Positions 54,882 through 61,641 of a stretch of DNA of 64,000 nt are shown here, piece by piece. The number at the start of each line of letters is the position of its first letter. Within the stretch, counting starts at the first letter, position 1. The notes under the pieces were generated by a model. That model had not been told where the DNA came from. It worked only from the letters and a program-made list of their open reading frames with translations, and did not search any database. The stretch covers positions 416,001 through 480,000 of the forward strand of contig CAVXEP010000032.1 of NCBI GenBank assembly GCA_963760795.1, read 5' to 3'. A program made the position numbers and the translations under genes. The stretch is from an uncultured delta proteobacterium (GTDB lineage: Bacteria; Desulfobacterota; Binatia; UBA9968).

Positions 54882-54948
54882 AGATTTCTCGCTTCGCTCG
54901 AAATGACAGACCTTGAATAACTGTCATCCCGAACGAAGAGAGGGATCT
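54882..54948. repeat. REP-like pair (AGATTTCTCGCTTCGCTCGAAATGACA / TGTCATCCCGAACG...GATCT)
   Basis: Two inverted imperfect palindromes in a divergent intergenic region. Confidence 0.7.
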
Positions 54949-55008
54949 TTCCGAACTGAACCACGACTCATGACGAGTTTCTGGACCTTCGGGACGGCAA
55001 GCAACGAA

Positions 55009-56428
55009 ATGGCGCAAACAACTTTGACTCCGAATCTCCAACGGCTCGCTCTCGCCAATGTTTGTCTCGGGCAGTTTTTGAGCGCCCTCGACTCGCGTTC
55101 GGTAAACGTCGCCTTGCCGACTATCTCGCTGTACTTCGACACTTCGATGGCGGCGGTGCAGTGGATTCCACTGGCTTATCAATTGACCATCGTCGGTTTG
55201 GTTCTGAGCATGGCGCGACTAGGCGACAAGCTTGGCCGCAAGGGGCTCTATACTCTCGGCTTCGTCATGCTCGGCTTCGGTTCGGCGGCTTGCGGTCTGA
55301 GTCCGTATTTATGGTTGATCGTCTGCTTTCGCGCGATCGAAGGCATCGGCGGCGCGCTGGTACTGGCCAACGGCCGGGCCATCGCCTCGGCGCTTTACGC
55401 CAGAGAAGGGCGCGGTCGCGCTCTGGGCATGATGTCGATGTCGTTTCATCTGGGCTACATCACCGGTCCGTCGGTGGGCGGATTCTTGGTCGACACCATC
55501 GGCTGGCGCTGGATCTTTTTCATGAACTTGCCGGTGGCGCTGGCGGCGGCCACTATGGCGTGGAAGATTCTCCCGGAAACCGTCACCGAGAAGCGCGATT
55601 ATTCCATCGATCCCATCGGTATGGTGACCTTGCTTACTACCGTGGTGGCATTGATCGTCGGCCTGCAGCAGGTGGCGAAGAGCGGCTTCGGCTGGCCGGC
55701 TTTGCTGGCCGGCGTGGTGGCGGTCACGTCGCTCTCGTTGCTGCTTTATTTCGAGCGGCGCGACCAGTCGCCGTTGCTCGATCTGTCGCTTTTCAAAGTC
55801 CGCTTGCTCACCGCCGGTTTGCTGAGCCATTTCTTCGTGTCGCTGTCGCATACCTCGACATTTTTTCTTGTTGCCGTTTTATCTCCAAGGGATTGCCGGC
55901 TACACACCGACACAGGTGGGCTTCACGGTGATCTGCTTCTCTCTGGTCATCGTTGTGCTCGCGCCAATCGGCGGCTGGCTCGCGGACCGGCTTGGCTCGC
56001 GCATGCTTTGCACCGTCGGCTCGGCACTCACCATGCTGAGCATGATCGGATTCTCGCGACTGGATGGCCCCGCTGGCCAGATCGGTGTGGTGATACCGCT
56101 GATGCTGTTGGGCTTGGGCTGGTCGCTGTTCCAGTCGCCCAACTTGAGCGGCATGTTCAACGCCGTCGAGCCGCGCTACGTCGGCGCGGTGAGCGGGTTG
56201 TCGCTGACCTCTGCCAACATCGCCAACGCCATGGGCGTGGCGGTCGGCAGCGTGCTGTTCATGCGCTGGCTGGACTTTTACGGCCTCGCGAGCGGTAGCG
56301 TCCCGCCGTACACGCAGTGGGGCGGCAATGCCGAGATCTTCGTCAAGGCGTTTCAGGGCTCGTGGATCGGTCATCGCCGGATTGGCGGCGTGCGATTGTC
56401 ACGTCAGCTCTGCGCGGAGCGGCAGTGA
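55009..56428 (+). CDS. DHA2-type MFS transporter (frameshift near 55865)
   Basis: LD...VNVALP, RLGDKLGRK, GP.VGG, WRWIFF.NLP; second half in 55868-56428. Confidence 0.88.
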
Positions 56429-56467: not shown

Positions 56468-56508
56468 TGGAGCGCAGCAACTGGACTCCATCACTCCAGC
56501 ACTCCGTA
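56468..56508. repeat. partial TGGAG/ACTCCA octamer repeat
   Basis: actccatcactccagcactccg. Confidence 0.65.
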
Positions 56509-56510
56509 GT

Positions 56511-57564
56511 TCAGTAGTTCAGCTGGCCGGCTTTTCTCGCTTTGATATTTTCCAGCACCTTCGCTCCCAGCGCGACGTCGGCGACGCCTTGGCCGGCGTT
56601 GTTTTTGTAGAATGTGATCTGGTCGAGGCGGGTGCGTCCTTCGCTGTTGCCGGCGAGGATCGAGCCGATCTCGATCAGCTGTTCCCACTTGATCACGCCG
56701 CGGTTGACCGGATCGAAAATATCCGCCTGCTCGTCTTGCACCGCCTGTTGTATCGACACGATGCCGTGGACATGGCTGCGCGACAGCGTGGCGTCGTCGA
56801 TTTCGCGCCGCTTGGCGGCGGTGAAGCCGCCTTTGACCAGGCCGACGTTGCTGCCGACGATGGTCGTCACATGCTGCCCCGGTTCCAACAAGTTGCCGTC
56901 GAATACCGGCACGCTGGAGTTGGTCGCCGTCAGGACGATGTCGACGCCGCGCACCGCTTCGGCTGGCGTCGAGACTGGAGTGATATTCAAATTGGTGAGC
57001 GGTCCCATCTCGTCGCAGAACTGTTTGCGGTTCTCCGGATTGCGGCTGTAGACCTTCACCGTTTTCAACTTGCGCACTTGCATCAAGTGCGAGCAGATGA
57101 TTTTTCGCCTGGCCGGCGGCGCCGAAGATGCCCAGGCTCGAAGCATCGGGCCGCGCCAGCAGGTCGGTGCCGACGGCGCTGGTGGCGGCGGTGCGCAGGC
57201 CGGTGACGGCGATGTTATCCGGCAACTCCGAGCAGGTGATCTCGCCGACGATGATGCCTTTCAATTCCCCTTCAGCGGCGTCGTAGAGCACGATGACCGG
57301 ATGATTGAGGCGCGGATAGACTTGCTCGCTGGCCATCGGTTTGACCCATTCGCAATGGGTCATCAGGCCGGTGGCTTTGGCCGCCGGCACGCCGCCCTGG
57401 TGCACGCTCACGCGCACGCCGGTGGGAATGTGAATGCGCCGGCGCGGCGCGTTGAGCTGCGGGTTCTCACCCCACTCGCGAAAGCCCAAGCGCACGGCTT
57501 CGACCGCTTCTTTCATGGTGACGATGCCGCGAATCTCTTGGGGACTGACGAGGATGGGTTGCAT
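56511..57564 (-). CDS. ornithine cyclodeaminase family protein (frameshift near 57090)
   Basis: TGLRTAATSA, G.AGQA; second frame ATNS..PV, GQG.AD. Confidence 0.88.
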
Positions 57565-57574
57565 GAAAGGCTCC

Positions 57575-57640
57575 TGGAGCAATGGAGTTGGATTGGAGTA
57601 ATGGGTCCGGACTCAACACTCCGTTACTCCATCACTCCAA
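57575..57640. repeat. TGGAGTNN octamer inverted tandem repeat
   Basis: tggagcaa-tggagttg...tggagtaa vs acactccg-ttactcca-tcactcca. Confidence 0.82.
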
Positions 57641-57650
57641 TCGCACTGTC

Positions 57651-58211
57651 TTACAGCGTTGGCGCCACTTGCGGGCGCGCGATCAAGTTCTCCGCCCAAC
57701 GTTTTATGTTGGGATAGTTGTCGAACGTGACGGTGTAGCGTTCGCGCCGGGTGTAGAAGGGGATGAATGTGACATCCGCCAGCGAGAACTGATTGCCGAC
57801 CAGATAGTCTTTACCGGCCAACGCGTCGTCGAGAGTGCGCAGGTGTTGATCCATGCGCACTTGGGCTTTCTCAGGGTCACGTTTTTTTTGCAGATCGCTT
57901 CCCGTCGGATGCACGCGGGTGTTGAAGAAATCCACCCAAATCCTCACCTTGGCGCGATTGAGTTGACTGCGCGGCATGAGCGGAGTGTCGGCGAATTTCT
58001 CGTCGAGATATTCGTTGATCACCGCCGACTCGTAGATGACGCCATCGCCGTCGACCAGCACCGGCACTTTGCCGTAGGGGTTCTGCTTGACCAGATCTTC
58101 CGGTTTGTTCTTGAGATCGACTTCGATGGTTTCGTAGGGGATGTTCTTTTCGGCCAGGACAATCCTTGTCCTGTGGGCGTAGGGTCAGGTGTGGCTGGTG
58201 TATAATTTCAT
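57651..58211 (-). CDS. glutathione S-transferase family protein, probable selenoprotein (186 aa, Sec at codon 9)
   Basis: MKLYTSHT-U(TGA)-PYAHRTRIVLAEK...NPYGKVPVL...ESAVINEYL; AAGGAG RBS; in frame with ORF 57651-58067. Confidence 0.87.
58155..58173 (-). promoter_or_regulatory. bacterial SECIS-like hairpin
   Basis: Minus strand CAGGACAA-GGA-TTGTCCTG, 8-bp stem starting 11 nt after the UGA. Confidence 0.75.
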
Positions 58212-58280
58212 CGCGAAGGCCTCCTTGTTTTGAAACTAATTACCATCGTGGCGCAGGTTAGGCAATGCGGATTGGATTCG

Positions 58281-58365
58281 GTTCAAATCGTTCCAGTCGT
58301 TCCAATCGTTCCAAATCGTTGTATTCCGATCGAACCGCCGGAACTGATTGGAACCTTTGGAACGG
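58281..58365. repeat. GTTCMANTC nonamer inverted tandem repeat
   Basis: 4 GTTC units, spacer, then 4 GAAC units. Confidence 0.82.
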
Positions 58366-58376
58366 CGCGCATTCAA

Positions 58377-59183
58377 TTATCGGTTGCGTGCCTGGAGCCG
58401 TTCTTGTAGACCGTCACCGACGAGATTGAGCGCGAAGACCGTGATCATGATCGCCAGCCCCGGATAGGTGGTGAGGTGCGGCGCGACCAGGAGAAACTGC
58501 CGGCCGTCGTTCAGCATCGATCCCCAGGACGGTGTCGGCGGTTCGACGCCAAGCCCCAGGAAACTCAAGCTGCCTTCGGCGATGATCGCGGCGGCGAGGC
58601 CGAAAGTCGCTTGGATTAATAACGGTGCCAGGAGATTGGGTAACAGATGGCGCAAAACAACGCGCTTGGGACTGCCGCCGAGAGCGCGGGCGGCTTGGAC
58701 GAATTCTCGTTCGCGCAGGGCGATGATCTCGCCGCGCACCAGACGCGCATAGCCGGTCCAGCCGATCAGGCAAAGCGCCAGGATAACGTGATCGAGCCCC
58801 GGCCCGAGCACGGCGGTGAAGGCGATGGCTAGGAGAATACCGGGAAAGGCCAGCAGGATATCGACCAGGCGCATGAGCAGTAAATCGATCCAGCCGCCGA
58901 AGTAACCGGCGAGGGCGCCGACGACGAAGCCGATGGCGAGGGAGATCGCCACGGTGGCGAAGCCGACCGAGAGCGAGATGCGCGCGCCGTAAAGCGTCCG
59001 GCTCAAGATGTCGCGGCCGAGTTTATCGGTGCCGAGCGGATGAGCGGCGCTGTAAGCGATCAGGTCGTTTTCTAAATTTTGCCGTAATGGATTATGCGGC
59101 GCTATGACCGGTGCCAATAGCGCCGAGACTAACAGGACCAGCAACATCGCCACGCCGGTGTTGAACCAGGCTCTAGTCGCCAT
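58377..59183 (-). CDS. peptide/nickel ABC transporter permease (DppC-like)
   Basis: LGTDKLGRD, EFVQAARALG EAA loop, LSFLGLG, PSWG. Confidence 0.92.
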   Translation of the reverse strand: MATRAWFNTGVAMLLVLLVSALLAPVIAPHNPLRQNLENDLIAYSAAHPLGTDKLGRDILSRTLYGARISLSVGFATVAISLAIGFVVGALAGYFGGWIDLLLMRLVDILLAFPGILLAIAFTAVLGPGLDHVILALCLIGWTGYARLVRGEIIALREREFVQAARALGGSPKRVVLRHLLPNLLAPLLIQATFGLAAAIIAEGSLSFLGLGVEPPTPSWGSMLNDGRQFLLVAPHLTTYPGLAIMITVFALNLVGDGLQERLQARNR

Positions 59184-60098
59184 AGCTCACCCGCGGATCG
59201 ACAAGTTTGTAAAGGATGTCGGTGAAAAAATTCACCAGCACATAGGCGACCGCGATGACCAACACACAACCTTGCACCAGCGGATAGTCGCGCGTCTGGA
59301 TCGCCTGCACGGTCAGTCTGCCGATGCCAGGCCAGCTGAACACGGTTTCGGTTATCAACGAGCCGGCGAGCAGGGCGCCGAATTGCAGGCTCATGATCGT
59401 TACCACCGACAACAGCGCGTTGCGCAGCATATGTTTGAGCCAGACCGATTTTTCGCTCAACCCTTTGGCGCGGGCGGTTTGGACGAACTCGGCGCGGGCG
59501 ACTTGCAGCAAACTGGCGCGAAGAATGCGCGTCAGGATCGCCGCCATGCCCAGTCCCAATGTGAGCGCCGGTAATACGACATGGAGCTAGTCCGCCGCGG
59601 CCCGACACCGGCGTCCAGCCGAGCTGAATCGAAAACAGGATCATCAAGAGCGGCCCAAGCCAAAAATTCGGCAGCGACAGGCCGAGCAGAGAAAATAATA
59701 GAGCGAAGCGATCCATCAGGCTGCCGGGCCGGCGCGCCGCCAGAAACGCCAGTGGAAACGATATGGCCAGCGCAGCGATCATGGCGCATAACGCCAGTTC
59801 GAGAGTCGCCGGCAGCCGTTGGCCGATGATTGCACTGACGCTCGCTTGTTCAAACAGCGAGCGGCCGAGATCGCCGGTGGCGAGCTTGGTCAGAAAGTTT
59901 CGATATTGCGTCGCCAGCGGTTGATCCAATCCGAGGGCGCGGCGCAGTTCCTGTTTATCGGCGCCGCTGGCGGTTTCGCCGAGCATGACCTCGACGGGGT
60001 CGCCGGGAATCAAGTGAACCAGCAGAAAGACCAATGACAACGCACCGAATAGAGTCGGCAGCAGGAGCAGCAGGCGGCGCCGGATAAATCGTTCTCAC
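59173..60098 (-). CDS. peptide/nickel ABC transporter permease (DppB-like), frameshifted
   Basis: PGDP, LGLDQP, P.FWLG; TARAKGL, ETVFSWPG, DPR. Confidence 0.88.
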
Positions 60099-60111
60099 GG
60101 GGGGATTGGGA

Positions 60112-61641
60112 TTAGCGCAGTGAGACTTGTTTCAGCGATATGAGATCGCCGTCGGGATAGGGGACAAAGCCTTGGACGTTGGTCTTCTTGGCAATGACAT
60201 TTTTCTGCCACCACAACGGCACGTACGGGCAGGTCCTCGGCGATCAGCCGTTGCGCTGCACCATAGATGCGCTTGCGTTCCGCCGGCTCCATGGCGACGC
60301 GGCCGCGATCCAGTAATTGATCGACTTGCGGGTTGGCGTAACGGCCGCGGTTGTCGCCGTTGGGCGGTACGCTGGCCGAATGAAAGATTTGATGCTGAAC
60401 ATCCGGGTCGCGGATGCCGACCCAGGCGAGCGAGTAGAGATGGAAGTTGCCTTTTTTCACATCGCTGAAAAACGTGCCCCACTCGTAGCTGCGGATCTCC
60501 AGCTCGATGCCGACTTGCAGCAGTTGCTCCTTTAACGCTTCGGCGATGCGCCGGCGCAGATCGATATTGGTGGTCTTGTAGGAAAGCCGAAAGCGCGCTC
60601 TTGGGCCGTCGCCGTCGGGGTCTTCGAAGCCGGCGTCATCGAGTAGCTGCTTGGCTTTGGCTGGATCGTAGGGCCATTCCGTCACGCTATTGTCGTAGGC
60701 TTCGTTGAGCGGCGAGATCAAGCCGTTGGCGGCGACCGCGGCGTCTTTGAGCAAATGGCGAATGATGCGCGCGCGGTCGATGGCGTGGGCGAGCGCTTGG
60801 CGCACTTTGAGCTGTCGCAAAATCGGGTGGGTCAGGTTGATGCCGATGTATTGAAACGTCGTGCCTTGATGGGCGGTGACCTCGGCATTGGTCTGGCTCT
60901 TCAGCCAAGGCAGCATGTCGGGCTCAAGATCGTTTTGCATGAAGTCGATGGCGCCTTGCTTAAACTCCAAGGCTCGCACCATGGCGTCGGGGACGATTTT
61001 GAATACCAAGCCGTCCAAGCGCCGGTTTGTTTTCCCAGTAGAGCGGGTTCGCTTTCAAGGCAACTTTCTCGCCGGACTCGTATTTGTCTAGGATGAACGG
61101 CCCGGAGCCGGGCGGTGGGCGATTGGTCCGCAGGCGATCCCTGGGGCACGATGCCGAGCGTGAAGTGTTCGACGAAGGGCGCATGGGCTGCGTTTAAGTG
61201 GAAGCGGAGCCGATGGCTGCCGGCTAGTTCGATGGCTTGAAGTTGTTTGAGCAACGCCCGCTTGGGCGAACGGTTGGCGGGATCGAGGATCGATTCAAAA
61301 GTAAATTTGACATCGGCGGCGGTGAGCGGCCGGCCGTCGTGAAACTTGACGTTGTCGCGCAGATCGAATTGAAAAGTGCGCTCATCAAGCCTGCGCCAGC
61401 TCTCGGCCAACTCGGCTTGCAACTGCATCTTCTCGTCGGCGCGCAGCAGCGAATTATAGATCAGATGGCCGATGCGCACGGCGTTGGCGTCGGTGGCGTA
61501 ACGCGGATCGAGCTGCGCCGGATTGGCTTCGATGCCGAGGACCAGATAGTTGGACGGCCGCTCCTGATCGGACGAGCGACAACCAGCGGCGAGGCAAATC
61601 AGCAGGAGCACCCAGCAGGAGCGATGAAAGTAACGCGGCAA
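60112..61641 (-). CDS. family 5 ABC substrate-binding lipoprotein (DppA-like), frameshifted
   Basis: LAAGC lipobox, LDP, FHDG.PLTA.DV, GSGPF, VRQAL..AIDR. Confidence 0.88.

Follow-up and report, generated by a model that had tools for sequence, protein, structure and literature searches.

A probable selenocysteine-containing glutathione S-transferase with a conserved hairpin after its in-frame UGA in an uncultured member of the Binatia

Results

Structure of the locus

The window analyzed here is a stretch of 64,000 nucleotides from an uncultured delta proteobacterium of the Binatia (contig CAVXEP010000032.1 of assembly GCA_963760795.1, positions 416,001 to 480,000), and its minus strand carries a gene for a protein of the glutathione S-transferase (GST) family with an in-frame TGA at codon 9. 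We propose that this TGA encodes selenocysteine (Sec) and refer to the gene and its product as Sec-GST. All features of the locus are collected in Table 1. The frame reads M-K-L-Y-T-S-H-T, TGA, P-Y-A-H-R-T-R-I-V-L-A-E-K and so on, and in the open reading frame (ORF) listing made with translation table 11 it is opened only at GTG 58067, which is codon 49 and the first in-frame start 3' of the TGA, resulting in a product of 138 amino acids. In related loci a GGAGG-like ribosome-binding site (RBS) is found at an equal distance from the start, and an RBS precedes the upstream ATG in all loci inspected. The initial annotation of the window had claimed that the ORF caller starts this GST at codon 49, that the frame continues upstream to an ATG at 58211 preceded by AAGGAG, and that a TGA at 58185-58187 lies in frame within MKLYTSHT-TGA-PYAHR. 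All three claims were borne out on the minus strand, exactly to the base.

Conservation of the in-frame TGA

For quantification of the conservation of the TGA, we used a set of 41 related genomes (G000 included) and matches of at least 49% identity. Exactly one TGA was present in 57 of these 58 matches, and the sole match without it begins at residue 15 at the end of a contig. A TGA-bearing copy was found in 38 of the 41 genomes, and the TGA occupied the identical codon in 40 of 41 loci, the 41st being the locus cut by the contig end. A scan of one genome per species yielded 153 relatives; in the 80 best, which were retained, the codon was TGA in 79 and TGT in one (L085). Pooling the unique coding sequences (CDS) gave 88 with TGA and one with TGT at the same codon (n = 89; L089 was left out of this set, and L033 from the unpublished genome G004 counts as one row, no claim hanging on it alone).

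It could be argued that the TGA arose by a mistake of assembly or by a mutation that left a pseudogene, and the state of the assembly lends this some substance. Frame-breaking errors are present in at least four neighboring genes: those for a transporter of the major facilitator superfamily (MFS), an ornithine cyclodeaminase (OCD), a DppB-like permease and a solute-binding protein are each broken into two overlapping frames with the Pfam matches continuing across. This suggests indel errors of the assembly, or possibly pseudogenes, and it fits the earlier statement that the other errors of this assembly are indels. The genome of the window is 88.9% complete with 6.2% contamination. However, contigs of two independent, unrelated DNA runs span 58185-58187 with no alternative letter listed. 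These contigs are short; one of 112 nt, running from 58156 to 58267, differs at one position only (58216), and the best sequencing run contains at most 0.26 of the sampled words. Moreover, the same TGA codon recurs in 88 of the 89 unique CDS, the TGA-bearing copies come from many independent assemblies with single-contig genomes among them, and the protein sequence is conserved in this frame both before and after the TGA. An error or a pseudogene is effectively refuted by this conservation, and we assign it practically no probability.

Position of the TGA in the active site

With the TGA translated as U, the product matched the Pfam families GST_N_2 (PF13409; 85.6 bits), GST_N_3 (82.7 bits), GST_N (74.3 bits) and GST_C (54 bits), all above cut-offs. 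The N-terminal match covers residues 1-76, and the matches comprise both the thioredoxin-like N-domain and the helical C-domain of the cytosolic GST superfamily. Sec-GST matched 282 PDB sequences at E ≤1e-3 (0.001). The best solved relatives, 6v91, 4qq7 and 4hoj (E 1.7e-35 to 1.1e-30), aligned over the full length (residues 1-182 for the best), with their T-C-P-F opposite the T-[TGA]-P-Y of Sec-GST. Human GSTO1 (1eem; E 4.5e-26) aligned with its residues 25-213 to residues 2-183, placing residue 9 opposite residue 32, and Cys32 is what we take to be the catalytic residue of GSTO1. A search of 1.84 billion representative proteins at E ≤1e-30 yielded 34 matches. The top one, P0002, is an ORF opened by the gene caller only at codon 29, while the nearest full-length representatives, P0003 and P0004, are 49% identical and carry C-P-F/Y-A-x-R-T-R at the site; C-P-F/Y-A is found there also in P0020, P0021 and P0022. 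The TGA thus lies at the nucleophile position of Cys-dependent GSTs, and both the solved and the full-length homologues agree with the initial annotation, which had placed it where such enzymes have C-P-Y/F.

These alignments also bear on the possibility that the TGA is a true stop, in which case the locus would encode an 8-codon leader peptide and a truncated GST from a downstream start such as GTG 58067. This arrangement is exactly what table 11 ORF calling yields, and truncated ORFs are present in the representative library (e.g. P0002 from codon 29). However, codons 10-48, which hold the active-site motif and K-V-P-V-L, belong to the most conserved part of the protein. In the Sec-GST alignment A1 the residues P10, A12-R16, V18, L19, E21, K22, E30, D32, L33, K36, L40, N44-Y46 and K48-L52 are invariant, as are K-V-P-V-L and E-S, and we take V-P and E-S to be residues of the glutathione (GSH) site of GSTs. 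Such strong conservation from the TGA to codon 49 leads us to conclude that this stretch is translated. With a start at codon 49, over half of the N-terminal Pfam match would be lost, and an RBS precedes the upstream ATG in all loci inspected. A leader peptide with a truncated GST is therefore extremely improbable.

A selenoprotein need not be a redox enzyme, and Sec-GST could act without catalysis, as an RNA polymerase-binding regulator akin to SspA. In PDB and NCBIfam alike, the top matches bear the name stringent starvation protein A, and 6v91, 4qq7 and 4hoj are SspA-like GST homologues. Against this, no equivalog was reached in the NCBIfam search, where the SspA equivalog NF007016 scored 105.3 bits, far under its cut-off of 314; the presumed GSH-binding residues V-P and E-S are invariant; and Sec at the position of the catalytic Cys would point to chemistry at that site. 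In addition, an SspA-like gene distinct from Sec-GST lies some 16 kb away in the genome (L040 1489-2091 (-), contig C32:490036-490620), with S-P-N-C-Q-R-V at the site, neither Cys nor Sec at the aligned position, and no stop. We consider a purely regulatory, SspA-like role very improbable for Sec-GST. The SspA-like paralogue is 40% identical to Sec-GST, and in several relatives such a gene lies on the same contig, about 15-19 kb away.

The hairpin downstream of the TGA

According to the initial annotation, a perfect 8-bp hairpin lies 11 nt past the TGA, with a loop that begins with G 19 nt from the UGA. This was borne out: 11 nt (58184-58174) separate the TGA from the hairpin, 19 nt lie between the UGA and the first loop G, and CAGGACAA-GGA-TTGTCCTG is the centroid structure on folding. 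Perfect 8-bp hairpins with loops of 3-7 nt number 38 in the window, both strands taken together (about 3 per 10,000 strand-bases), and to meet one by chance at a set, short spacing from a particular TGA is improbable yet possible. From the window alone the hairpin is suggestive, and it is the comparative data that make the case decisive.

Silent sites are unusually conserved under the hairpin. The silent-site pair identity of codons 13-19 was 0.87, 0.89, 0.78, 0.98, 0.93, 1.00 and 0.79, compared with a gene median of 0.52, and of all 7-codon windows the one from codon 13 scores highest (0.89 versus 0.53 for the median window). The same is seen in the choice of codons, which are otherwise rare in these genes: Arg14 and Arg16 are AGG in 172/178 cases, against 80/1171 Arg codons elsewhere in the same genes. 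Corresponding values are 78/89 against 34/645 for ACA at Thr15, 46/49 against 156/905 for ATT at Ile17, and 89/89 against 393/1078 for GTC at Val18. Pairing was analyzed in 88 TGA-bearing stretches, 66 of them distinct: 96.6% of the cells of the 8-bp helix were paired, versus 26-51% when the partner was slid. Five pairs are invariant across the 66 distinct sequences, and double changes occur at two others, 15-33 (C-G to U-A) and 21-27 (A-U to G-C and to U-A). Within the genome of the window the pattern AGGACNAGGNTNGTCCT is found at two GST paralogues only, Sec-GST and the second copy described below.

The single TGT orthologue provides a natural control. L085 (1501-2058 (+)) is the only Cys form among the 89 unique CDS, and in the tree it is sister to a Sec form and nested deep in the Sec clade. 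It keeps the peptide H-R-T-R-I-V-L, but encodes it with AGA, CGA and ATC codons, and its fold reaches -5.6 kcal/mol (z +0.5) versus -11.2 to -15.8 for four Sec forms. The same assembly also carries a TGA-bearing paralogue (L148). Judged by its place in the tree and its codons, L085 represents a natural Sec-to-Cys replacement with a decayed hairpin, and this control is the strongest single result for the tie between hairpin and TGA. The hairpin is thus kept among TGA-bearing homologues and lost in the one TGT orthologue, as expected from the initial annotation, and the comparative sequences indicate that it is selected as RNA and tied to the TGA.

Selenocysteine machinery

All components needed for Sec insertion were called above curated cut-offs in the genome of the window. 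The selD (378.6 bits), selB (410.5 bits) and selA (612.2 bits) genes lie together on contig C11, and a tRNA-Sec (76.7 bits) with anticodon TCA is found on contig C13, so that the machinery (selA, selB, selC, selD) on which the initial annotation depended is present. The selD gene has an in-frame TGA of its own in the context A-G-[TGA]-A-A-K (L001 2395-2397 (-), contig C11), which makes SelD an apparent selenoprotein too. Over the 60 nt 3' of the selD TGA the fold is no better than shuffles (z +0.29), and it looks different from the GST hairpin.

Weighing of the selenocysteine assignment

Taken together, the data make it very probable that the locus is a genuine selenoprotein gene for a cytosolic-type GST, probably of the Cys-dependent kind (Omega/Lambda-like, C-P-F/Y-A), with Sec in place of the nucleophilic Cys that begins helix 1. 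The selenoprotein reading of the initial annotation is supported, and none of the refutation tests run overturned it.

A number of observations nevertheless weigh against it. Three of the 41 relatives (G001, G003 and G036) have no TGA-bearing copy, and contigs from RNA libraries cover only 57815-58103, a part without the TGA, and are no proof of transcription. Folded as a single sequence, the element gains little over its shuffled versions (z -1.26 over 71 nt, -1.64 over 48 nt). At each of the pairs 15-33 and 21-27, 7 of the 66 distinct sequences are unpaired, true covariation amounts to 4 cells at 2 pairs, and the stem is mostly unvarying. RNAalifold on the 88 sequences retained the 4-bp GGAC/GUCC core alone with a covariation term of zero, and the case for the hairpin thus depends on the conserved silent sites and on the Cys form as a control rather than on covariation. 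An Rfam scan of 58100-58230 at E ≤10 returned no SECIS (selenocysteine insertion sequence) family and only a chance miRNA match on the other strand. Finally, the genome G192, a metagenome-assembled genome in 240 contigs, has a TGA-bearing GST (L154 = L095) with an intact hairpin and no DppC neighbor, and selA, selB and tRNA-Sec were not found over cut-offs there, which may be a binning gap.

G192 could also be cited for a decoding of the UGA as some other amino acid, either by reassignment to Trp or Gly or by near-cognate reading as Cys or Trp, with the hairpin doing nothing but slowing the ribosome, since it has the gene although no Sec machinery was found in it. Near-cognate decoding of UGA does occur in bacteria. 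The following speaks against such a decoding. Ordinary ORFs of the window end normally, and the true stops of 38 complete copies are 14 TGA, 15 TAA and 9 TAG; because TGA is a real stop in 14 of the 38, the genetic code is standard. The homologues have Cys at the site, not Trp or Gly. The genome has a complete Sec system. The position of the hairpin and its G-containing tip are as described for bacterial SECIS elements. The hairpin decays where the codon is TGT. We therefore regard another amino acid at this position as very unlikely.

Distribution and paralogues

In a sample of the class, Sec-GST (E ≤1e-45) was found in 17 of 18 genomes of the order of the window, covering three families, and in none of the 132 class-sample genomes of other orders (0/132, same threshold); in a phylum sample it was found in 0/150 other genomes (E ≤1e-45). 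In comparison, selA was above cut-off in 112/151 class genomes, and a selA match at E ≤1e-60 was present in 95/132 class genomes outside the order. With the gene limited to one order and selA common in the class, Sec-GST is a lineage-specific addition within a Sec-using class. The record titles of related public contigs are mostly Candidatus Binatia or 'delta proteobacterium'. Other titles on Sec-GST records (L077, L090, L133, L144, L146) name Chloroflexota, Verrucomicrobiia, Udaeobacter, Limnocylindrales and Eisenbacteria, and these deviant titles look like mislabels: a few records titled with other phyla fall into the same genus by taxonomy, and at least L077 is identical to the locus of G005, a genome placed in the genus of the window.

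Tree and neighborhood split the Sec-GSTs into two paralogue groups. In the group of the window, a gene for a DppB/DppC-type ABC permease lies directly upstream of the GST on the same strand (tblastn) in 20/20 loci of the set L019-L038 and 30/31 of the set L072-L102, and an OCD gene lies downstream in 19/20 and 17/31, respectively, i.e. in the closer orthologues (the two sets overlap in content). Neither neighbor was found at any of the 50 loci of the second group (L039, L103-L151). The genome of the window carries a member of this second group, L039 1498-2058 (-) (contig C16:25747-26304), which is 54% identical, has its TGA at the same codon and a hairpin with one A-U pair changed to G-C, and is flanked by genes for a solute-binding protein, an NMT1-like protein and a thioesterase. 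No shared context was seen for the second group (L039, L104), where the neighbors gave generic solute-binding, thioesterase or ABC (ATP-binding cassette) matches or no Pfam match.

Genomic neighborhood

The genes around Sec-GST in the window are listed in Table 1. For the transporter and OCD pieces no NCBIfam equivalog scored over cut-off, and consequently the substrate of the transporter cannot be named.

Table 1 Features of the Sec-GST locus and its surroundings in window coordinates.
Feature	Position	Strand	Basis
RBS AAGGAG	58226-58221	(-)	sequence reading; 9-nt spacer to ATG
Start codon ATG	58211-58209	(-)	sequence reading
Sec-GST CDS, TGA as U at codon 9	57651..58211	(-)	translation, 186 codons + TAA; Pfam and PDB matches
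In-frame TGA/UGA, proposed Sec codon, residue 9, motif U-P-Y-A-H-R	58187-58185	(-)	aligned with Cys of homologues
SECIS-like hairpin, 8-bp stem CAGGACAA/TTGTCCTG, GGA loop	58155..58173	(-)	folding and comparative pairing
Hairpin 5' arm CAGGACAA	58173-58166	(-)	sequence reading
Hairpin loop GGA	58165-58163	(-)	sequence reading
Hairpin 3' arm TTGTCCTG	58162-58155	(-)	sequence reading
Invariant hairpin core GGAC/GTCC	58171-58168 with 58160-58157	(-)	comparison of relatives
Stop codon TAA	57653-57651	(-)	sequence reading
DppC/NikC/GsiD-type ABC permease, upstream neighbor	58377..59183	(-)	Pfam BPD_transp_1; NCBIfam Opp/Nik/Gsi matches near cut-off
DppB-like ABC permease, two frames	59129..60040	(-)	Pfam BPD_transp_1_N 59129-60040, BPD_transp_1 59173-59559
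Family-5 solute-binding protein (Opp/Dpp/Nik/Gsi type), two frames	60095..61641	(-)	Pfam SBP_bac_5 on both pieces
OCD/mu-crystallin gene, downstream neighbor, two frames	56491..57582	(-)	Pfam OCD_Mu_crystall, both pieces
MFS transporter, two frames	54913-56428	(+)	Pfam matches continue across pieces

Two repeat regions flank the gene. The intergenic region upstream of Sec-GST (58281-58364) holds four tandem GTTCCAATCGTTCCA-like units about 9 nt apart, with inverted copies (TTGGAAC) of the unit 33-47 nt off. Between the GST stop and the OCD start (57575-57647) several inverted repeats of TGGAGTAATGG-like units overlap; their arms measure 11-19 nt with 81-91% complementarity, and they may form a structured element or a terminator lacking a T-run. 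A scan for promoters and terminators gave nothing over the shuffle level.

Discussion

Above we described an in-frame UGA at the nucleophile position of a GST and a hairpin conserved along with it. The gene structure, the pairing of Cys with Sec, the conservation of UGA and hairpin, the Sec machinery and the intactness of the residues we take to be the GSH site are directly supported by the data, and the events at the ribosome and in the active site may be pictured as follows. Translation would start at ATG 58211, and SelB carrying Sec-tRNA-Sec would bind the hairpin 58173-58155, with G-G at its tip 19-20 nt past the UGA, when the ribosome reaches the UGA at 58187-58185. Sec would then be inserted at residue 9, and the ribosome would read on to the TAA at 57651. 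In the folded enzyme, by analogy with Cys-GST chemistry, the selenolate would attack glutathionylated or disulfide, dehydroascorbate-type or S-conjugate substrates, forming an enzyme-Se-SG selenenylsulfide that a second GSH would resolve to glutathione disulfide (GSSG). Sec-GST would in that case act, like Cys-GSTs, as a thiol-transferase or reductase and not as a conjugating enzyme.

A comparison can be made with the Omega-class GSTs and other Cys-GSTs. Cys-dependent GSTs have the motif C-P-F-A-x-R, and their Cys works through mixed disulfides. The U-P-Y-A-H-R-T-R-I-V-L of Sec-GST resembles that motif, and V-P and E-S are conserved. The present protein differs in having Sec for Cys and in its length, with 8 residues before the nucleophile here, 24 residues before the aligned start in 1eem, and 186 versus 241 amino acids in total. 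Sec-GST lacks the long N-terminal extension of the Omega class, its residue 2 being aligned with residue 25 of 1eem. As for the RNA element, it resembles the bacterial SECIS of the E. coli fdhF type in being a hairpin within the CDS directly after the UGA with a guanosine in a small apical loop, whereas the present hairpin is a short one of at most 8 pairs, 4 of them invariant, and has no Rfam match.

Selenoproteins of the GST-like kind have been predicted before. A family from marine metagenomes was reported with 4 sequences from the Sargasso Sea (Zhang, Fomenko & Gladyshev 2005, Genome Biol 6:R37), and the Global Ocean Sampling (GOS) survey of 2008 gave 12 GST-like selenoprotein sequences with 1,036 Cys homologues. 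Reviews of 2022 and 2026 call GST-like selenoproteins functionally uncharacterized and give one representative accession each, the Sec motif not being stated there. This literature matches the remark of the initial annotation that Sec-GSTs have been predicted from metagenomes and are little characterized. Literature searches returned nothing linking Binatia to selenoproteins; among the matches listed, those for Binatota with selenocysteine concerned only methane-cycling work on sponges and those for natural Sec-containing GSTs only glutathione peroxidases.

The marine proteins resemble ours in belonging to COG0625/PF13409, in having an in-frame TGA with a hairpin after it and widespread Cys homologues, and in being predicted by computation only. 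They differ in coming from ocean water with 4 + 12 sequences, whereas the present clade is order-wide, forms two paralogues and has an ABC-permease neighbor, a comparison made by description only. Our analysis points to a new and well-supported clade within a kind of selenoprotein already predicted by computation, and not to a new kind of system.

A more far-reaching picture may also be sketched, in which an independent, order-specific and non-marine Sec-GST clade has one of its two paralogues in an operon with an Opp/Nik/Gsi-type importer and an OCD imine reductase, where it would catalyze a selenium-dependent step on an imported glutathione- or peptide-linked compound, and in which the minimal GGAC/GUCC hairpin with its A-A-G-G-A/C-U-U tip would be the SelB target of the lineage. 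We offer this picture tentatively and think it rather unlikely to hold as a whole.

Selenoprotein genes are routinely truncated by gene callers, and the public representative library has only post-TGA ORFs of Sec-GST; the present locus is a simple template for correction of the annotation in genomes of this order. The 88 TGA-bearing sequences in two paralogue groups, with a sharply defined hairpin, constitute a clean comparative set for the GST-like selenoprotein family, to which the natural Sec-to-Cys revertant without a hairpin adds, and the conserved transporter neighborhood suggests a substrate to seek. For the organism itself, the findings would mean that at least three genes of this genome, selD and both GSTs, make use of selenium.

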